Position numbers and translations under genes: made by a program | NCBI GenBank assembly: GCA_963555985.3 | Contig: OY820591.1 | Location: 608,001 to 672,000, forward strand | DNA: 64,000 nucleotides | Direction of reading: 5' to 3' | Source of the DNA: Dehalococcoidia bacterium | Lineage (GTDB): Bacteria > Chloroflexota > Dehalococcoidia > Bin125 | Shown here: piece by piece, positions 51,735 to 61,437 of the stretch | Numbering within the stretch: position 1 is the stretch's first letter | How the letters are laid out: the number at the start of each line of letters is the position of its first letter | Notes under the pieces: model-generated | Database searches by the model: none | Told to the model about the DNA's origin: nothing | What the model saw: only the letters and a program-made list of their open reading frames with translations

Positions 51735-54176
51735 CTAGTCGCCCCGAGCCGCGAGCGGAATCGTCCCAATCACGTCGTCCACCTCCATCTGATCGATCTC
51801 CGCCTCAGTCAACAAAGTCAGCCGCGCCAGCACCTCGCGCGTATCGCGCCCAAGCGTCGGCGACGGACGATCGACCTCCGGGCCGCTCCAGTTGCCGAAG
51901 CGGTAGGGCTGCAATGGATAGCGCCGAGCGCCCGCATAGGTGTGCTGCTGGGTGATGAAGAAGTCGCGCGCTTGCAGGTGCTGGTCTTCCAACAAGTCGC
52001 GCCCGTCGTAGACCACGCCGGCCGCAATCCGCAATCCCTGCAACTCGCGCATCAACTGCCCGGCGTCGCGCTCGCGCGTCCACTCGGCGATCGCAGCGTC
52101 GATCTCGCTACGGGCCGCGCTGCGCTCGCTGAAAGTGCCGTAGCGCCGGATCCAGTCCTCCCGACCCATCAGCCGCGCCAGATCGGCGAACTGTACGTCG
52201 CTCTCACACGCAATCGCGATCCAGTGATCGTCCTGACAGGGATAGGTGTTGTGCGGCGCGATCCGCGGGTGATAGTTCCCCACCCGCCCCGGATCTTCGC
52301 CCGAGATCGAGTACGCCGTCACCGCTTCGCCCGTGAACGACGTGGCCGTCTCGGTCTGCGAGAGGTCGATATGGCAGCCGCCCGGCTCACCCTGAGCGTT
52401 CAGCCGACGCCGGCGCTCCAACGCCGACAACAAGGCCAGCGCCCCCATGATCCCGGCCAGCGGATCGCCGCCCGTCGTCCCGCTGAAAATCGGCTGGTCG
52501 TCCGCGTAGCCCGTCAGATGCGGCAGCCCCGACATCTGCTCGGTCGTGTTGGCGAACGCCGTGTAGTGCGACCACGTACCGGTCAGCCCGAAACCAGGCA
52601 TCGAGATCATGATCAGCTCGGGATTGATCTCGCGCAGCTCCTCATACGACAGCCCGAAATTCCCCATCACACGAGGCGTGTAGTTCTCCACGAGAATGTC
52701 GGCCTCTTTGACCATGTGGCGAATCACGTCCGCGCCGCGCCGGTCGGTCAGATTGAGCGTGATCCCATGCTTGTTCCGGTTGACCCAGTTGAACTGCGGC
52801 GCCCACTCCCACCAGAACTCCTCGCTCGCGCCGCCCGCCCGCCAGCCGTCAATCCGCTGCACCGACTCCACCTTGATCACGTCCGCCCCCCCATCCGCGA
52901 AGACCAGCGACGTCATCGGCCCCGACATGAACATCGACAGATCAATCACCCGCAGCCCCTCCAGCGGCCTCTCTCCATTACTCCCGCGCCCTCCTCCGTC
53001 ATTCCCGCGCTTGTCGCGGGAATCTCGATCCCTGGCCTCCCACACTCCCGCCCGAACCTCTGCGTCATGCTCCCCCAGCAGCGGAGTCCGACTCCCTAAC
53101 GGCCGCTCCTCCCCGAACATCCACGGAATCCCCGGCATTCGCACATGACCCGCGCGCGGATGCTCAAAGTCAAAAAAGAACGCCCGCTCCCGATGCGGCA
53201 GCAAGTTCATCACATCGGACAACGTCGGAATCAACCCGAACGGAATCCGCCAAGTCTGAGCGTCGTGAAAGACATCCTCCGCCGTCCGAGGACGAGTCAG
53301 ATCGGCCAACTCGTTCGCCAGTTCGCGGGAGTTGGCCGTTCGCGCCCACGGATCGGCAAACAACGGATCCTCGATGAACTCCGGCTTGCCGAAGAACTGG
53401 CAGAGCATCTCCCACTGCGCCTGCGTCAGCACGTTCGCGCCCACATACCCATCGGAGGTGGGCAGTATGAACGACGGCGCCGGCCCGATATCGGCGCCCC
53501 GCACGCCGATCGTGCCGGTGTAGTCGTAACGCTGCACCGGCAGCAGCGCCGCGTTGACCGCCGTCTCCATCACCGACACATCCACATGATCGCCGCGACC
53601 GCGCTCCTGCGCCGCATACACCGCGATCAGCGTCGCCACCGCCGCATACGCCCCGGTCAGCGTCTCCGTCACCGAAGCCCCCAACTGAAGCGGCTCCCGA
53701 TCCGCCCGCCCGCACAGATGCGTAAACCCGCCCAGCGCCCCCGCGATCAGATGGTTCCACTCCCAATCGGCATACGGCCCCACCGACCCAAAACCGCTCA
53801 CAGTCGTCAGCACGACCCGAGGATTCCGCGCCGACAAGTCCCCATAGCCAAGCCCCCGAGCCGCCAGCGATGGCTCGGTCTCATGCGAGATCACCACATC
53901 AGCCTGCTCAAGCAACCGCGCCCGGAGCGCCAGATCGTCAGGGTTCGACGGATCGATCACCACACTGCGCTTCGACGTATTGGCGTACAGGAACGCAGCC
54001 GAAGCCTCGATGTCCTCAGACCCGGCGAACGGACCGCGCCGGCGCGCCGAGTCCCCCTGCGGCGGCTCCAGCTTGATCACGTCCGCGCCCAGATCGCCCA
54101 GCAACTTCGCCGCAAACGGAGCCGCCAGACCCTCCGAGACGTCCAAGACCCTCAGTCCATTCAGCGCCGTGGTCAT
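51735..54176 (-). CDS. Two-domain family III CoA-transferase (CaiB/BaiF)
   Basis: Two L.GLRV.D.S..GADVIK.E..N..K units. Confidence 0.92.
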   Translation of the reverse strand: MTTALNGLRVLDVSEGLAAPFAAKLLGDLGADVIKLEPPQGDSARRRGPFAGSEDIEASAAFLYANTSKRSVVIDPSNPDDLALRARLLEQADVVISHETEPSLAARGLGYGDLSARNPRVVLTTVSGFGSVGPYADWEWNHLIAGALGGFTHLCGRADREPLQLGASVTETLTGAYAAVATLIAVYAAQERGRGDHVDVSVMETAVNAALLPVQRYDYTGTIGVRGADIGPAPSFILPTSDGYVGANVLTQAQWEMLCQFFGKPEFIEDPLFADPWARTANSRELANELADLTRPRTAEDVFHDAQTWRIPFGLIPTLSDVMNLLPHRERAFFFDFEHPRAGHVRMPGIPWMFGEERPLGSRTPLLGEHDAEVRAGVWEARDRDSRDKRGNDGGGRGSNGERPLEGLRVIDLSMFMSGPMTSLVFADGGADVIKVESVQRIDGWRAGGASEEFWWEWAPQFNWVNRNKHGITLNLTDRRGADVIRHMVKEADILVENYTPRVMGNFGLSYEELREINPELIMISMPGFGLTGTWSHYTAFANTTEQMSGLPHLTGYADDQPIFSGTTGGDPLAGIMGALALLSALERRRRLNAQGEPGGCHIDLSQTETATSFTGEAVTAYSISGEDPGRVGNYHPRIAPHNTYPCQDDHWIAIACESDVQFADLARLMGREDWIRRYGTFSERSAARSEIDAAIAEWTRERDAGQLMRELQGLRIAAGVVYDGRDLLEDQHLQARDFFITQQHTYAGARRYPLQPYRFGNWSGPEVDRPSPTLGRDTREVLARLTLLTEAEIDQMEVDDVIGTIPLAARGD
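52994..53027. repeat. REP unit inside the CoA-transferase coding sequence
   Basis: CCGTCATTCCCGCGCTTGTCGCGGGAATCTCG, 2 differences from intergenic copy 17305-17336. Confidence 0.85.
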
Positions 54177-54692: not shown

Positions 54693-54759
54693 CTTTCCCA
54701 GAGACACCTAGACTCAGGCCAGCGTACGGCAAGGTCCGAAACAAGGCTTGGAGTTGGGC

Positions 54760-56328
54760 ATGGTCTGGGAACCCGAAGTCGAAGAACTGCGCCATCGCAC
54801 CGAACTCTCCGCACGCGGAGGCACACCCGACCGCATCGCCCGACAGCACCGACTCGGACGCCTCACCGTCCGCGAACGCATCGAGAACCTGCTCGATCCC
54901 GGTTCCTTCCACGAAGTCGGAGCGCTCGCCGGCCTGGGCGAGTACGAAGACGGCGAATTGGCCAACTTCACCCCCGCCTCCTACGTCATGGGCCTCGGCA
55001 AAATCGACGGCCGCACCGTCGCCGTCGGCGGCGAGGACTTCACCATCCAGGGCGGCTCCGCGCTCTTCCCCATGCAGCGCTCCAAAGGCGGACTCGGCGG
55101 ATTCTGCGAAGAGTTGGCGGTCGAATACCGCGTACCCCTGATCCTCCTGATCGACGGCGCCGGCGCCAACGTCGGCGCGACCAAGAAGATGGGCACGACC
55201 TATCTCCCCAACGGCGGTACCAACTTCGTCACCTCAATTGAGGCGATGCGCAACGTGCCCGTGCTGGCGGGCGTCCTGGGCGCAATCGCCGGCGGCCCCT
55301 CCGGTCGCGCCATGATGGTCCACTGGAGCGTGATGACCAAAGGCCGCTCCGCCATGTTCGCCGCCGGCCCGCCGGTCGTGAAGCGCGGCATCGGACACGA
55401 CGTCACCAACGAGTCGCTGGGCGGATCGCAGGTCCACGTCCACACCTCGGGCTGCATCGACAACGAAGCCGAAGACGAACCCGACGCCTTCCGCCAAATC
55501 CGCACGATGCTCTCCTACCTGCCCGACAACGTGAACGAACTCCCGCCCGCCGCGCCCGCCCTCGACGCCCCCGAAGGCGCGGGCGAGCAGCTGATCGACC
55601 TCGTCCCCCGCAACACCCGCCGCCCCTACTCGATGTACAAGCTGATCCGCTCCGTCGTCGACGGCGGCGAGTTCTTCGAGATCAAACCCCATTGGGGCAC
55701 AGCCGTAATCACCGCCTTCGCCCGCATCGACGGACTCCCCATCGGCATCGTCGCCAACAACCCGCTCAAGAACGGCGGCGCGCTCGATCGCGACGGCTCT
55801 GACAAGCAGACTCACTTCCTCGAGCTCTGCAACTACTTCCACATCCCCATCGTCTACCTGGTCGACGTGCCCGGCTTCATGATCGGCGAGCAGGCCGAGC
55901 GCGAGGGCACCCTCCGCTCCGGCATGAGAGCCGTCTGGGTCGGCCTCCAGGCGACCGTGCCGCAACTCACCATCGTGATCCGCAAGTGCTACGGCATGGC
56001 CGGCATGGCCACCGGCAACCCCCGCCGCCTCAACTACCGCCTCGGCTGGCCCTCGGGCGAGTGGGGCAGCATCCCCATCGAAGGCGGCGTCGACGCCGCC
56101 TACCGCCGCGAAATCGCCAACGCCCCCGACCCCGCCGCCAAGCGAGACGAAATCGAAGCCGACCTCCGCAAGCTCCGCAACGTCTTCCGAACCGCCGAAA
56201 CCTTCGGCATCGAAGAAATCATCGACCCCCGCCAAACCCGAACCTACCTCCAACAATTCGTCGAACGAGCCTACAAAGTCCTCCCCTACGAACTCGAATC
56301 CAAACCCCTCCACGGAGTCCGCCCCTAA
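54760..56328 (+). CDS. Acyl-CoA carboxylase carboxyltransferase (beta) subunit
   Basis: GRLTVRERI, DFTIQGGS, AGPPVV, LGG..VH, DVPGFMIG. Confidence 0.9.
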   Translation: MVWEPEVEELRHRTELSARGGTPDRIARQHRLGRLTVRERIENLLDPGSFHEVGALAGLGEYEDGELANFTPASYVMGLGKIDGRTVAVGGEDFTIQGGSALFPMQRSKGGLGGFCEELAVEYRVPLILLIDGAGANVGATKKMGTTYLPNGGTNFVTSIEAMRNVPVLAGVLGAIAGGPSGRAMMVHWSVMTKGRSAMFAAGPPVVKRGIGHDVTNESLGGSQVHVHTSGCIDNEAEDEPDAFRQIRTMLSYLPDNVNELPPAAPALDAPEGAGEQLIDLVPRNTRRPYSMYKLIRSVVDGGEFFEIKPHWGTAVITAFARIDGLPIGIVANNPLKNGGALDRDGSDKQTHFLELCNYFHIPIVYLVDVPGFMIGEQAEREGTLRSGMRAVWVGLQATVPQLTIVIRKCYGMAGMATGNPRRLNYRLGWPSGEWGSIPIEGGVDAAYRREIANAPDPAAKRDEIEADLRKLRNVFRTAETFGIEEIIDPRQTRTYLQQFVERAYKVLPYELESKPLHGVRP

Positions 56329-56363
56329 ACCAAGAGCCAACCCCCTCCCCCCTCCCCCTTGAA

Positions 56364-56650
56364 GAGACCTGCGCGTAAATCCCCAATTCCGTCATTCCCG
56401 CGAACGCGGGAATCCATGCAGCGTCTCGAATGGCATCCGGACTCCCGCCTGCGGAGACCGTTGCGAAATCCCCACCTCCGTCATCCCCGCCCCAACAAGT
56501 TCCGTCATCCCCGCCCCAACAAACTCCGTCATACCCGCGCCCCGTCGCGGGTATCTCGCCGTGACCAGCACCCAACCCCCAAACCCCACCTCCCCTCTCC
56601 CCCCCTCCGCGGGGGGAGATGTCGCGTAGCGACAGAGGGGGGGACTCCCC
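56364..56650. repeat. Large REP cluster including 24-bp tandem half-units
   Basis: ATTCCCGCGAACGCGGGAAT; TCCGTCAT at 56477, 56501, 56525; CCCTCTCCCCC..GACAGAGGGG unit. Confidence 0.8.
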
Positions 56651-56750
56651 AACCCTCAGTCAACCACGACACACCCCCAAATTACCCACCCGAACACCCA
56701 TCCATATAAGATCAAGTGTCCTTCATTGAGCAAGAGAGGAACCCGGACCC

Positions 56751-57113
56751 ATGCCCTTCAACTACACCTACCAGTCCGCCATGAACGGCGTCGGCGAGCT
56801 CGCCTTCTGCAAGCGCGAACCCGGCTACGTCCGCGCCCAAGCCTTCGCCATCCTGCGCCGCGAACTCTCCCCGGCCAACCCCAAGAGCCGCGAGATCCAC
56901 CACGCGCTCGGCATCGAACCCCACCCCGAGCCCGCGCCCCGCCCCAACCACTCTCACCTGCCCGAAGCGCCGCTCACCCCCGAGCAGCAGAAGGACTTCC
57001 ACCTCAACCCGATCTTCCAAGTCTACGACGAGGTGATGGCGCTCGTGCACGGGGACGACGTCCCCTTCGGCGAAGACGAAGAAAGCACGGAGGAAGAGGA
57101 TGAGCCTCAGTAA
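56751..57113 (+). CDS. Hypothetical 120-aa protein with acidic tail, coupled to terminase
   Basis: RBS-like GAGAGGA, host-like codons, 14-nt overlap with terminase start. Confidence 0.65.
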   Translation: MPFNYTYQSAMNGVGELAFCKREPGYVRAQAFAILRRELSPANPKSREIHHALGIEPHPEPAPRPNHSHLPEAPLTPEQQKDFHLNPIFQVYDEVMALVHGDDVPFGEDEESTEEEDEPQ

Positions 57114-58518
57114 TACCCCTGCCTCGAAGCGGTTGAACCGAGCGTTCGACCGCTTCCACGACGCCCGCGATTTTTTTCCGACGGACAGACAGCGCGAGCT
57201 CTATAGCGCAGTCGCTACCGTGCCTAACCCCGGCCTCGCTCTGGTCGGGTACGGCGGCGCCATGGGCGGCGGCAAGACGCGAGCGCTGGTCGAACTCGCG
57301 ATCGACGCCGCCTTGTTCTACCCGGGCAACGACATCCTGATCGGGCGAGACGCCTACACCAATCTCGCCACCACCACGATGCGCGAGTTTGACCGCCATT
57401 GTCCGTCGGAACTGGTTGTCGCCCGACGACAGAGCCCGACCCATTCCGCCGCCCTGCGAATGCCGCACTGGCCCGACGGGGTCGTCTCCACCGTCCACTT
57501 CCGCCACCTCTCCGACTGGACCGGCCTCGGCTCCCAGCAGTACGGCACCGTGCTGATCGACGAAGCCGGCGAAGTGGCCGAAGAAGCCGCCCAGATGCTG
57601 CTCACTCGCCTCAGACACCCGGCCCAGCCCCAGCGCTGGTTCGTGGCCGCCTCCAACCCCCACCCGGGCTGGTTCGAGCGCTGGTTCGTCCAACGCGAAC
57701 TGAACAAAGCTGAACTGGAGCACGCCGGCGGACAAGCCCGCTTCATCCCCGCCAAGATCGAGGACAACCCCCACCTGCCCGACAACTACGCCGAGCAGCA
57801 GCGCGCCCTGCTCCCGCCCGATTGGGTCGAACGCTTCATCGAAGGCCGCTTCGACGCCTTCGAGGGCCTGGTCTACCCCAAGTTCAACCCCAAACTGCAC
57901 CTCTGGGATAAGCGCCTGCCCAGCTTCGAGCGCTACCTCGGCGGCCTCGACTTCGGCGCTCAGACCGAACAAGCCCACTACACCGCCGGCATCGTCGCCG
58001 GCCTCACTACCCGCTACGCCGTCTGCGGACCCAACGTCTTGATCCGCCTGGCCGAGTTCGAGGACAGAGGCCCCGGCGTCACCCAGCGGCTCGAACAGTG
58101 GATGCTCCAGTGCCGCCGGCGCTTCGGCTCAATCAGTTGGAACGCCGACCGCACACAGTCCGCCTGGATCGATCACCTTCACCGCCGCGGGCGCGACATC
58201 CGCCCCAGCCGGGGCGGGCCCGGCTCCGTCCACCAGGGCATCGGCCTCGTGCAAGAACGCCTTTCGAGCGACCCGCCGACCTCCTTCTACACCCCCGAGC
58301 TCGTCCAGTTCCCGCGCCGCATGAGGGAGTACCAGTGGCGAGACCCCCGCGCCGCCAACCCCCAACCCCGGGACCGCGACGACGACCTCCTCGACGCCGA
58401 CCGCTACTGCCACGAGCTGGCCCAACCCCAACTCGAACCGCCAACCACCCGGATCGAGTTCTTCCACCTCCCGCCGCTCGACCGCGGCCGCATCGCCAGC
58501 ATGAGAAATCAGCTCTAA
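57100..58518 (+). CDS. Phage-type terminase large subunit (orphan)
   Basis: Walker A GYGGAMGGGKT, Walker B VLIDEAGE, coupling ASNP, nuclease GGLDFG and DDDLLDADRY. Confidence 0.85.
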   Translation: MSLSNTPASKRLNRAFDRFHDARDFFPTDRQRELYSAVATVPNPGLALVGYGGAMGGGKTRALVELAIDAALFYPGNDILIGRDAYTNLATTTMREFDRHCPSELVVARRQSPTHSAALRMPHWPDGVVSTVHFRHLSDWTGLGSQQYGTVLIDEAGEVAEEAAQMLLTRLRHPAQPQRWFVAASNPHPGWFERWFVQRELNKAELEHAGGQARFIPAKIEDNPHLPDNYAEQQRALLPPDWVERFIEGRFDAFEGLVYPKFNPKLHLWDKRLPSFERYLGGLDFGAQTEQAHYTAGIVAGLTTRYAVCGPNVLIRLAEFEDRGPGVTQRLEQWMLQCRRRFGSISWNADRTQSAWIDHLHRRGRDIRPSRGGPGSVHQGIGLVQERLSSDPPTSFYTPELVQFPRRMREYQWRDPRAANPQPRDRDDDLLDADRYCHELAQPQLEPPTTRIEFFHLPPLDRGRIASMRNQL

Positions 58519-58537
58519 CCCATGCCCACCCACAATG

Positions 58538-58722
58538 CCGTCATCCCCGCCCCCAAGAATCTCCCCCTCAAGGGGGAGATGCCCCAACGGGGCAGAGGGG
58601 GTGAAACGCCACCCCCAGCACAAACGCCCCCAACCAACCTCCCCTCTCCCCCCCCTCTGCGGAGCCTGTCCCCGCGCACGCGGGGAGGGAGATGCCGCGC
58701 AGGCGGGGGACAGAGGGGGTCC
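58538..58722. repeat. REP cluster downstream of terminase
   Basis: CCGTCATCCCCGCC half-unit and two CTCCCCC..GGGAGATG..CAGAGGGGG units. Confidence 0.75.
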
Positions 58723-58764
58723 GCCCACCCCCACCCCCTACGCTGAACCCAAAAGGAAGCGCCC

Positions 58765-59922
58765 ATGAGCATCGAACTCTCCGAAGCCCAACGCCTGCTC
58801 CGAGACACCGTCCGCGCCTTCGCCAACGACCACATCGACCCCATCGCCGACGACATCGACCGCCACGACCGCTGGCCCGATCACCTCTGGCCGATGCTCG
58901 GCGAACTCGGCCTGCTCGGCGTCACCATCGACGAGCGCTACGGCGGCTCCGACGCCGGACTCCTGGCCGGCGTCATCGCCACCGAGGAAATCGCCCGCGC
59001 CAGCGCCTCCATCGCCCTCTCCTACGGCGCCCACGCCAACCTCTGCGCCAACAACATCCACAGCAACGGCAACGAAGCCCAAAAACAGCGCTACCTGCCC
59101 GGCCTCTGTAGCGGCGAACAGGTCGGCGCGCTCGCTCTCACCGAACCCGAAGCCGGCTCCGACGCCGTCGGCATCCGCACCACCGCCGTCCGCGACGGCG
59201 ACGTCTACCGCCTCAACGGCTCCAAAATGTTCATCACCAACGGCTCCGTCGCCGACACCCTCGTGCTCTACGCCAAAACCGACCCCGACGCCGGCTCGCG
59301 CGGCATCACCGCCTTCATCGTCGAATCCTCCTTCGAAGGCTTCAGCGTCGGCCAACACCTCGACAAGGTCGGACACCGTGGCTCCCCAACCGCCGAACTG
59401 ATCCTCGACGACTGCATCGTCCCCGCCGAAAACATCCTCCGCGCAGAGGGGCGCGGCGCAGGCGTAATGATGCAGGGACTCGCCGTCGAACGCGCCTTCC
59501 TCGCCGGAGAACCCCTCGGCATCGCCCAGGCCGCCCTCGATACCGCCGTCGAATACGCCCGCCAACGACGCCAGTTCGGACAGCGCATCGGCGACTTCCA
59601 ACTCATCCAGGCCATGCTCGCCGACATGTACACCGAACTCGAAGCCGCCCGCTGGCTCGTCTACCGCACCGCCCACATCGTCGAACAAGCCGCCGCTCGC
59701 GGCGAGCGCAGCAACAAAGAAGCCGCCGCCGCCATCCTCTACTCCGCCGAAATGTCCTCCCGCGTCGCCGACAAAGCCGTCCAAATCCACGGCGGCTACG
59801 GCTACATGTCCGAAAGCCGCGTCGCACGCTACGTCAGAGACGCCAAACTCCTCGAAATCGGCGCCGGCACCAGCGAAATCCGACGCCTCCTCATCGGCCG
59901 CGAACTCATCGGCCCAGAGTAA
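58765..59922 (+). CDS. ivd: Isovaleryl-CoA dehydrogenase-like acyl-CoA dehydrogenase
   Basis: LSYGAHANLC, LTEPEAGSD, NGSKMFITNG, RDAKLLEIGAGTSEIRR. Confidence 0.85.
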   Translation: MSIELSEAQRLLRDTVRAFANDHIDPIADDIDRHDRWPDHLWPMLGELGLLGVTIDERYGGSDAGLLAGVIATEEIARASASIALSYGAHANLCANNIHSNGNEAQKQRYLPGLCSGEQVGALALTEPEAGSDAVGIRTTAVRDGDVYRLNGSKMFITNGSVADTLVLYAKTDPDAGSRGITAFIVESSFEGFSVGQHLDKVGHRGSPTAELILDDCIVPAENILRAEGRGAGVMMQGLAVERAFLAGEPLGIAQAALDTAVEYARQRRQFGQRIGDFQLIQAMLADMYTELEAARWLVYRTAHIVEQAAARGERSNKEAAAAILYSAEMSSRVADKAVQIHGGYGYMSESRVARYVRDAKLLEIGAGTSEIRRLLIGRELIGPE

Positions 59923-59984: not shown

Positions 59985-60120
59985 AGCGACGAGGGCCGAC
60001 GCCTGCGCAGCGGGAATTGGTCCCGTCGCTGGAGGCGGCGAACGCAGGCTCCGTGTCGCGCCGCTGAGACCAAAGGGGCTCGAAGGTCAGCTTCTGCCAT
60101 TGCGGGGGCTGGCCTTCACT
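59985..60120 (+). ncRNA. Candidate structured ncRNA adjacent to DUF3800 gene
   Basis: Three hairpins whose non-Watson-Crick pairs are G-U on the + strand; loops of hairpins 1 and 2 are complementary. Confidence 0.55.
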
Positions 60121-60129
60121 CTCCCACCA

Positions 60130-60858
60130 TCACAGGTTGATCAGGCCCCAGCGACCGTCAAGTCCGTTTGGATCCGGGTGCAGCTTCGAAGAAATGATCC
60201 GCCAGTCTTCATGATCAACCTTGCCGAGTATGTGCCTCCCGATCGGACTCACCACGAGGTCTGCGAGTTCAAGCCCAGCGATGCGATCTCCCTTGTTGTG
60301 GAGCTCGATGCGGGATATTCGTCGCCGAATCGTCAATGCGCGTCGATCCTCTATCCCCTCCTTGCGTATACGCCCCCATTCTCGCTCCAAACCTGCGTCA
60401 AGAACCGGATCTCGACGCTCCACCACGACCCGTCCTCCATGAATACGCGGACCAATCACATCACAGAAGCGATCAATAAGGCGCTGAAAACAAATGTGAT
60501 ACACATCTCCCTGCCATTCTGCGGACATATCTGCTCGGCCGCTCTTGCTCACTGTGCAAGCCAAAACAGTGTATTCAAGACTATGCATCAACCGATTGAG
60601 ATCCTCGAAGGCTTGAGCGCGTCGCCCTGGATGACGCAGTGACCGAAATGCGCCCCGAGCACGAACGAGGTCCGCGCTATGCAGCGTGAAGTCGGTACGC
60701 CCGCAGTGTTCACTCTTGAACTGTCTGATCGCAGCAGCCACCGTCGTTGCCGCGTACTGCTCCTCCATCACCACTCCACCCAGCACAAAAACTGGGTACT
60801 GCGGATCGATCTTGACCAAATTGTGATCCCCCGACTCATCCAGGTAGAGAACGCGCAT
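60130..60858 (-). CDS. DUF3800 domain protein (RNase H-like fold)
   Basis: LYLDESGDH..YPVFVLGG, LHSAD, VVVERR, AGLELADL. Confidence 0.85.
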   Translation of the reverse strand: MRVLYLDESGDHNLVKIDPQYPVFVLGGVVMEEQYAATTVAAAIRQFKSEHCGRTDFTLHSADLVRARGAFRSLRHPGRRAQAFEDLNRLMHSLEYTVLACTVSKSGRADMSAEWQGDVYHICFQRLIDRFCDVIGPRIHGGRVVVERRDPVLDAGLEREWGRIRKEGIEDRRALTIRRRISRIELHNKGDRIAGLELADLVVSPIGRHILGKVDHEDWRIISSKLHPDPNGLDGRWGLINL

Positions 60859-60867
60859 CTGCTGATC

Positions 60868-61395
60868 TCACCCCAGCAAGATCCGAACCCCCTGCTCATA
60901 CCCGTCCAGCGCACGAGCGCACAATTCCTCATCGCTCGCGCTCCCAATCGGATGATCCACCAACGCATACCGAAAATCCGCCAACCCCAGCGTCTTCGCA
61001 ATCATCCGCCCCGTCGGATCAAACGGATGCGTACACAGCACCAGGCTCGGCTTCCCGCTCTGCTCGAAGGTAATCCCGTCATGCACACTGCACGTCGAAC
61101 ACGAGCCTCAATCGCCCACCGCCGTAATCAGAAAGTCAACGTCGTTCGCGATCCGCTCCAACACCTGCGGCTCCGCGATCCGGCTCGCATTCAGCTTGCC
61201 CGTATCGACCACGACTTCGCACTCATGCCGTCGCACAAACTCCTCCGCCGTGAAGCGAAGCAGTCGGTCGGCGTTCACCTTCGCATTCGAGAACAGCCCA
61301 ATCCGCAAACCGCTGAGCGTCTCCAAACGCGGTGCGTGGCGAAAGCCCGTCGCAGCCGGCTCGCCGGTGGGGTCAAAGAGTTCGAGCGGCATCAA
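60868..61395 (-). CDS. UGSC family selenoprotein (TGA at 61110-61108 read as Sec)
   Basis: ORFs 61108-61395 and 60868-61086 are in the same frame; read-through gives AVGD-U-GSCSTCSVHDG; hairpin follows the TGA. Confidence 0.8.
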
Positions 61396-61437
61396 GCATC
61401 CTCTCCCTGGAAATCCGGCAAATCTGACCGGAGAACT

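Follow-up and report, generated by a model that had tools for sequence, protein, structure and literature searches.

To our knowledge, terminases are known solely in virions, phage satellites, or gene transfer agents (GTAs). In phages, the small terminase subunit (TerS) regulates the nuclease and ATPase of the large subunit (TerL). GTAs of the RcGTA type keep a head-tail cluster in which TerL lies beside the portal and capsid genes. Phage satellites, such as phage-inducible chromosomal islands (PICI), their capsid-forming relatives (cf-PICI), and PICI-like elements (PLE), carry a TerS or a TerS and TerL of their own together with an integrase, regulators, a replication module, and an att site, and they interfere with the packaging of the helper phage. 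Here we analyze a terminase gene pair found in a 64,000-nucleotide stretch of the genome of a Dehalococcoidia bacterium (positions 608,001 to 672,000 of contig OY820591.1 in assembly GCA_963555985.3; the whole stretch is called the window below). The window is part of contig C1 of a 3.33-Mb assembly, labeled G000, which consists of 11 contigs and has a completeness of 96% and a contamination of 7.5%. Relatives were compared in a set of 41 sampled genomes, G000 counted in. The gene pair is very probably one copy (copy B) of a capsid-less cassette of a TerS core and a TerL that is conserved and chromosomally inherited in one Dehalococcoidia family, has no virion genes, evolves under purifying selection, has multiplied, undergoes gene conversion, and is found at broken gene adjacencies.

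The cassette in the window comprises two genes:

56751-57113, plus strand: small open reading frame (ORF), 120 aa, ATG start, with a predicted helical hairpin at residues ~7-39, followed by a Pro-rich linker, then the variable cassette segment and the acidic tail ..EEEDEPQ

57100-58518, plus strand: TerL gene, copy B of five intact paralogues, 472 aa, ATG start, with an ATPase at the N terminus and an RNase-H-like nuclease at the C terminus according to family matches

The two genes overlap by 14 nt (ATGAGCCTCAGTAA), and the small ORF is translationally coupled to a complete TerL ATPase-nuclease. In Pfam, TerL matched Terminase_3 (27.6 bits; cut-off, 23.2) and Terminase_6N (27.1 bits; cut-off, 22), and seven TerL families of the PHROGs collection matched as well, led by phrog_2 (5.8e-23). 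The score against the PBSX equivalog TIGR01547 was 41 bits, below its cut-off of 105, and a sequence search of the PDB gave no match at E<=0.01. Across 50 family members, the invariant residues were G50-T60, which we take to be Walker A; D154/E155, taken as Walker B; A183-N186; and the acidic D284, D350, and D428-D434, presumably catalytic positions. Judged by its sequence, the protein is a member of the TerL family with a Walker A/B ATPase and an acidic nuclease triad. The ORFs, the family matches, and the invariant motif residues bear out an earlier description that a model had made from the letters of the window (the sequence-only reading), which listed an intact 472-aa TerL preceded by an overlapping 120-aa ORF. 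Its remark on host-like, C-ending codons held as well: the GC content of third codon positions (GC3) is 0.86 in TerL and 0.88 in the small ORF, compared with 0.82-0.86 in the neighboring housekeeping genes, and 61-63% of the codons in the cassette genes end in C. A Pfam scan found no known transposase domain in either ORF, and a consensus scan of the locus found no sigma-70-type promoter and no terminator.

A homologue of the small ORF was present directly upstream of TerL, overlapping its start, at 50 of the 63 loci with a candidate ORF. When the profile built from these upstream ORFs (A3) was compared with the PDB, the top match was the Pam5 small terminase (E 0.034), and it extended across the conserved core. 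Against 1.84 billion representative proteins, the same profile gave 114 matches at E<=1e-3. From these we chose 23 longer hits in which the match lies after an N-terminal extension; 21 of them are phage TerS proteins (phrog_51 and others), and A3 aligns to their residues ~55-140. In the small ORF, the core begins at residue ~3, and the N-terminal helix-turn-helix DNA-binding domain is absent. Since the profile aligns only to residues ~55-140 of phage TerS, the family appears to have lost that domain, and on profile evidence the small ORF is a TerS stripped to its oligomerization core. The sequence-only reading had proposed modeling the small partner as an oligomeric TerS, and the profile matches point to a TerS derivative. 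The tail of the family is acidic and ends in ..DEPP or ..EEPQ. In the AlphaFold model of the small ORF (mean predicted local distance difference test score [pLDDT], 73.9), helices 7-19 and 25-39 form a hairpin with a pLDDT of 95-97 at residues 11-40, and the C-terminal half is ill-defined. Scans of single small ORFs against Pfam and PHROGs gave nothing significant (one of 44 members matched phrog_51, at E 0.053), and a word-based protein search with the small ORF returned own-genome copies only.

The sequence-only reading regarded TerL as a single, orphan gene. Instead, it belongs to a repeated cassette: G000 contains five full-length TerL copies with 87-100% amino-acid identity, at least four N-terminal TerL stumps, and small-ORF modules that stand alone (solos). 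The small ORF was found 28 times by tblastn (47-100% identity) and 30 times with the family profile. An excess of small ORFs over TerL was also seen with the profile in genus g7 (11 versus 4 in genome G006; 8 versus 4 in genome G013). In an alignment of the five full copies, near identity extends from ~56650 to ~58530 in window positions, and the unit, with its two genes, measures ~1.9 kb. Two sites within it are shared by the shorter copies:

56651-56750, plus strand: conserved leader of all cassette and solo copies, running from ..CAACCACGACACAC.. to a GAGAGG-type ribosome-binding site; left edge of the repeated unit proper

57209-57224, plus strand: internal site CAGTCGCTACCGTGCC at TerL codons ~37-42, homologue of the sharp right end of the solos

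All 28 small-ORF copies share the leader anchor, and the CAGTCGCTACCGTGCC motif is present in 26 of them. Nineteen copies (18 solos and m18), each ~540 bp in length, have one common leader start and a sharp right end, ..CAGTCCCTACCGTGCC, with unique flanking DNA directly beyond. The solos also share a 22-nt deletion within the vestigial 5' part of TerL. Together with the shared ends, this deletion indicates that the solos descend from one 3'-truncated cassette that was later copied as a unit. The small ORF is open, at 108-126 aa, in 27 of the 28 copies, m08 being broken. The copies adjoin unrelated housekeeping genes, among them sulfite reductase, purL/purQ, ndk, sigma-70, and thiolase, and their spacing is uneven, with none found at 0.92-1.69 Mb. 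Folding of the 3' part of the solos gave no sign of unusual structure (z +1.3). Inspection of the end alignments by eye, without a formal scan, revealed neither terminal inverted repeats nor target-site duplications.

The copies evolve under constraint. All five TerL genes are open, and the pairwise ratio of nonsynonymous to synonymous divergence (dN/dS) is 0.10-0.28 at dS 0.12-0.31; the closest pair, C/E, gave 0.10 at dS 0.12. For the 18 solo small ORFs, dN/dS was 0.32 at dS 0.22, rows m08 and m17 having been removed before the count. Among 17 solos, nucleotide diversity (pi) was 0.017-0.048 in codons 12-41, 0.02-0.10 in the non-coding 3' part, and 0.16-0.28 in the leader. Synonymous diversity of the solos (pS) was 0.089 in codons 1-55 versus 0.25-0.31 further on. 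The variable segment of the small ORF (~codons 85-100) exists in four alternative versions, which are common to TerL-linked and solo copies. A further observation concerns contig C9 (17 kb), which duplicates the segment C1:415721-427721 with 96.7% identity across 11.4 kb; this duplication represents either strain heterogeneity in the assembly, with its contamination of 7.5%, or a recent segmental duplication. When C9 was compared with the C1:421.7-kb locus, the flanks were 97-100% identical, the upstream block of repetitive extragenic palindromes (REPs) 62-80%, and the variable segment 68%, a pattern that we read as apparent recent gene conversion between copies.

We also evaluated how widely the cassette is distributed. 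TerL relatives with 55-72% identity are numerous, and 219 proteins passed E<=1e-3 among 8000 candidates scored. In species-representative genomes, 109 stretches encode a TerL relative, and 67 distinct loci were kept. Sixty-six of these loci are titled Chloroflexota, Chloroflexi, or Dehalococcoidia; the exception is a 2.5-kb contig labeled Gammaproteobacteria. Among the sampled genomes, TerL was found in 12 of 41, all of them in family f1 (genera g1, g3, g7, and g8). Matches to TerL of cultured phages have ~24-28% identity and cover at most 61% of the protein. IMG/VR contributed nine TerL relatives with 26-44% identity, the nearest viral contigs reaching 37-44%, and the best of them sit in a phage-like TerS-TerL-(~700 aa)-... 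array. A single-protein scan of the viral contigs found nothing. When 18 proteins from the viral TerL loci were searched in G000, TerL alone matched, and none of its neighbors did.

The inheritance of the cassette was examined with a TerL tree of 72 rows (64 loci, the five G000 copies, and three viral sequences, after removal of two short rows and with one partial locus left aside). The five G000 copies form one clade with a support of 100. Other genomes carry 2-4 copies from different deep clades, and two other genomes each have a closely related pair. Comparison of the flanks yielded 177 locus pairs with genes in common both to the left and to the right, in more than 10 syntenic groups. In the largest group, of 17 loci, the 588-aa left gene is 81-94% identical to that of the reference locus, and the CoA-transferase gene on the right is 76-90% identical. 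The probable ancestral copy in G000 is copy D, which adjoins an orthologue of the 588-aa gene (79% identity). Synteny is thus kept across many genomes; the sequence-only reading had named it, along with dN/dS below 1 (0.10-0.28 among the TerL paralogues), as a check on domestication, and both came out in favor.

Small genes of the conflict type occur near cassettes, including PaREP1 four times as well as Mrr-like, GIY-YIG, DUF433, AF2212-like, and HNH genes. Those of the PaREP1 family (PF05942, labeled "archaeal") adjoin cassette or solo copies in several bacterial genomes, namely at L027:5131-5481 (G000 C1, beside solo m09), at L047:7136-7495, and as the upstream ORFs of loci L112, L113, and L126. 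As a separate observation, genus g7 has genes of 76-86 aa directly downstream of TerL, with a hydrophobic C terminus and no Pfam match (MASMNP..-type, sometimes in tandem; L049:7374-7604 in genome G024 and L056:7653-7913 in genome G013). Chromosomal terminase cassettes, whether orphan, domesticated, or repeated, did not appear in the search listings and abstract openings of the literature that we consulted, and a term search of one review of recruited mobile elements (PMC8987985) returned "terminase" 0 times.

Virion genes were sought throughout the 3.33-Mb genome. There was no match to Phage_portal, SPP1_portal, the HK97 capsid, or the S78 prohead protease, with the limit that divergent genes could escape such Pfam-type models, and no portal, capsid, protease, or other phage gene was found beside any locus examined. 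Two Phage_integrase (tyrosine recombinase) matches are present in G000, at 0.96 and 1.45 Mb; both are outside the window and near no copy. The claim of the sequence-only reading that the window contains no portal, capsid, or integrase therefore stands, and for structural genes the result extends to the genome as a whole.

The two genes that flank the cassette in the window are as follows:

54748-56328, plus strand: carboxyltransferase gene (PF01039, by Pfam), left flank

58765-59922, plus strand: acyl-CoA dehydrogenase (ACAD) gene, right flank

Pfam thereby agrees with the earlier statement that the cassette is inserted between two acyl-CoA catabolic genes. Both flanks take part in a set of four adjacencies that are kept in relatives and interrupted in G000, where each broken end abuts a cassette copy. 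In five relatives, the orthologue of the carboxyltransferase gene (87-93% identity) directly abuts neighbors that have their G000 orthologues at C1:760182-768818, a stretch immediately to the right of truncated copy m10 and 95.8 kb away from the copy in the window. In four g7 genomes, a gene upstream of the ACAD orthologue (87-89% identity), gene X, corresponds to C1:2031519-2032807, beside the left end of copy E, and the X/ACAD junction is unoccupied there. Copies D and E are each followed on the right by a gene (R_D and R_E). In 11 of 14 family-f1 relatives, these two genes are divergent neighbors separated by 59-442 nt, and in the remaining three the gap is 1.4-3.7 kb; in G000, it is 76 kb. 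Finally, in G000 it is m10 that now neighbors the CoA-transferase gene of the large syntenic locus. The carboxyltransferase/271-aa and X/ACAD junctions fit insertion followed by exchange between copies. At the R_D/R_E junction, each half adjoins the right end of a copy, and the CoA-transferase gene is next to a left end; these two cases would call for additional steps.

Two further features of the surrounding DNA were noted. Just downstream of the cassette, the tract at 60000-61400 has a GC content of 0.56-0.61 versus 0.65-0.70 around it and includes a DUF3800 gene (60130-60858, minus strand) with a GC3 of 0.58 versus 0.82-0.88 in its neighbors; the tract looks like recently acquired DNA. On the other side, an 813-aa ORF (51735-54176, minus strand) contains two CoA_transf_3 stretches, has 68-83% identity in relatives, and is, going by its domain content, a tandem-fused family III CoA-transferase.

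The cassette in the window is bracketed by REP clusters:

56370-56650, unstranded: left REP cluster with three hairpin types, namely CCGTCATTCCCGCGAACGCGGGAATCC; a ATACCCGCG..CGCGGGTAT hairpin followed by CTCGCCGTGACCAGCA; and a double G/C hairpin

58519-58735, unstranded: right REP cluster after the TerL stop codon, common to four of the five full copies, with folded hairpins

The sequence-only reading had placed REP clusters on both sides, and folding of the DNA supports this, with z-scores of -2.5 and -4.1 on the left (-4.1 is the extreme across both clusters). The motifs recur genome-wide, three of them in 50, 80, and 93 copies. Twenty-two of the 50 ATACCCGCG..CGCGGGTAT-type hairpins lie within 300 nt of a small-ORF start, and most cassette copies have a hairpin of this type directly to their left. 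The number of REP units varies among the five full copies. In copy E, there is no right REP, and unique DNA begins 12 nt past the stop codon; REPs are therefore not an obligatory part of the unit. A profile search of the whole genome, which is 96% complete, found no Y1_Tnp domain (REP-associated tyrosine transposase [RAYT], PF01797) at E<=0.001, and there was likewise no genome-wide match to IS110, rve, or DDE_Tnp_1. The sole TnpB-like gene in G000 is at C1:1758397-1758594.

Apart from the clusters at the cassette, G000 contains hundreds of REP-like hairpins, at 26-93 copies per motif. The public sequencing runs found were four DNA runs of one study and no RNA run. In contigs from these four runs, the summed word depth of the CCGTCATTCCCGCGAACGCGGGAATCC REP unit (window 56293-56469) was 1e4-1e5 versus ~5-140 in the unique flanks. 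This difference indicates that the REP family is very abundant in the sequenced community, probably across many genomes. The contigs of these runs were short and gave no usable empty-site or excision evidence; skips over the element lead from one REP to another, the short sides measuring 21-25 nt.

As to what the cassette does, we tentatively favor a conflict module, that is, a persistent TerS-core/TerL cassette subject to rare duplication and to recombination. By analogy with phage terminases, the TerS core would form a ring, bind TerL through its acidic tail, and restrain or license the TerL nuclease and ATPase. With neither a DNA-binding domain nor a capsid, the pair might act directly on DNA ends or on structured DNA. 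It could serve as an abortive-infection or packaging-interference defense or as an addiction-like pair, and in the addiction-like version the solo TerS-core genes would be spare regulators. New copies would arise by rare duplicative insertion beside REP hairpins, and homologous recombination would then shuffle the flanks of the copies. We favor this explanation because each copy has been kept at its locus, the operon resembles a pairing of a small regulator with a large nuclease, the TerS has lost DNA recognition, and toxin-antitoxin (TA)-like genes recur nearby. Packaging-interference defense and a DNA-processing motor, both raised in the sequence-only reading, are possible roles.

Several results weigh against a conflict module built on a TerS core. 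No family in PADLOC matched either protein. Fold searches with the monomer model of the small ORF gave only non-significant, generic helical-hairpin matches (PaP3 TerS, E 6.2; NV1 TerS, Z 4.1, root mean square deviation 4.0 over 44 residues). Most neighbors of the cassettes are housekeeping genes or unannotated (60 of 116 flanking ORFs were scanned, and larger ones were dropped). The 19 solos, moreover, have conserved non-coding ends and in this resemble a mobile unit more than a set of duplicated regulator genes.

This last likeness would be accounted for by an autonomous mobile element, in which TerL and the TerS core drive their own duplicative spread, the solos are mobilized in trans, and the REP hairpins may move too; we regard such an element as rather doubtful. 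The units are discrete, with a common left end by a REP hairpin, and the same sharp right end occurs in 19 copies whose intergenic sites are unrelated. In the solos, conservation of the non-coding 3' part (pi 0.02-0.10) equals that of coding DNA. Empty sites exist at the carboxyltransferase junction in five relatives and between gene X and ACAD in four, and the single clade of the five G000 copies argues for expansion within the genome, with a closely related pair in each of two other genomes pointing the same way. As with an insertion sequence (IS) or a miniature inverted-repeat transposable element (MITE), there are thus many copies, common ends, unrelated sites, and empty sites in relatives; a known transposase family, inverted repeats, and target duplications, which such elements would also have, were not found, the last two in the by-eye inspection. 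Hundreds of REP hairpins are present, yet the searches returned no RAYT, IS110, rve, or DDE_Tnp_1 and one TnpB-like gene. Taken furthest, this reasoning would make the terminase the "transposase" of a new class of prokaryotic mobile elements, TerL and the TerS core cutting hairpin-flanked ends and spreading the cassette, the solos, and maybe the REPs, with the copies then remodeling the chromosome by recombination, a proposal that we consider unlikely. However, orthologous copies stay at the same locus in many genomes, where they are under purifying selection, and all solos could stem from one truncation, as their shared 22-nt deletion allows. The TerS core, moreover, has no DNA-binding domain with which to recognize the ends of an element, and we know of no terminase that performs strand transfer or integration.

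The phage ancestry of the genes can be taken in two other directions. The cassette could encode the packaging enzyme of a dispersed GTA or hijack the capsids of a helper phage, with the small-ORF modules as packaging start sites and host DNA as the cargo. The motifs of both TerL activities are conserved in sequence, and copies occur in large number at scattered chromosomal positions. Within the small ORF, codons 12-41 show unusually little nucleotide diversity (pi 0.017-0.048), which could point to a cis-acting site; terS is a frequent location of pac sites. The dispersed GTA put forward in the sequence-only reading nevertheless fares poorly. The genome scan found no portal of either family, no HK97 capsid, and no prohead protease, although divergent capsid genes could escape Pfam models, and of the 18 viral-locus proteins, TerL alone matched in G000. 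The TerS has no DNA-binding domain, which pac recognition needs, and its absence weakens readings based on pac-site recognition or on a GTA; the uneven spacing of the copies, with its gap at 0.92-1.69 Mb, also speaks against a packaging role. We therefore hold packaging of host DNA to be quite improbable. A decaying prophage remnant with no present function is scarcely credible, even though the genes are of phage origin and truncated copies exist. None of the five TerL genes is broken, and their dN/dS is 0.10-0.28 at dS values as high as 0.31; different genera have kept the pair, and kept it in synteny; its codon usage is fully host-like; and no other phage gene occurs at the loci examined. 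The nearest homologues are orphan cassettes on Dehalococcoidia chromosomes (55-72% identity), viral ones reaching only 37-44%, which is the opposite of the pattern that the sequence-only reading had associated with a simple prophage relic. The relic reading is contradicted by the selection and synteny results.

A chromosomal TerS-core/TerL pair that has long been kept and is found with no particle genes implies a capsid-independent job for a packaging motor-nuclease. If true, defense, addiction, or self-mobilization would each be a new use of a terminase. The cassette is also a candidate explanation for the REPs of Dehalococcoidia genomes that have no detectable RAYT and for the rearrangement of genomes in which the common transposase families searched gave no match.

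Compared with known systems, the cassette most resembles the terminase of pac-type tailed phages (a phrog_51-type TerS with a Terminase_3/PBSX-like TerL), with which it shares a small subunit located upstream of the large one and overlapping it, the ATPase and nuclease motifs, and homology of the TerS core. It differs from that terminase in that no portal, capsid, or tail genes lie beside it or were found in the genome, its TerS has no DNA-binding domain, and it is chromosomal, syntenic, and multicopy; its TerL is 37-44% identical to the nearest viral sequences and scores 41 bits against TIGR01547, where 105 are required. Like a GTA, it is a phage-derived terminase that the host has kept under purifying selection and inherited vertically, but no head-tail gene set was found here, and it is the terminase itself that is repeated. 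With phage satellites it has in common packaging genes that occur apart from a full virion set. The cassette, however, is a two-gene unit of ~1.9 kb, and the two tyrosine recombinases of G000 are near no copy. Type II TA modules with orphan antitoxins offer another parallel: the upstream ORF is small and acidic and extends into a larger nuclease gene, the unit is multicopy and persistent, small genes also occur alone, and TA-like genes are found nearby. Here, the larger protein is a 472-aa two-domain motor-nuclease, neither protein matched a TA or defense model, and the likeness rests on operon shape and solo genes. Finally, as in IS with MITE-like derivatives and in REP/RAYT systems (REPINs), the copies are dispersed and have shared ends, short derivatives outnumber full ones, REP hairpins are present, and the copies serve as substrates for rearrangement. 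Unlike in those systems, no known transposase family or RAYT was found, and inspection by eye showed neither inverted repeats nor target duplications; the short derivative of the cassette keeps an intact, selected ORF, and copies persist at orthologous loci across genera.

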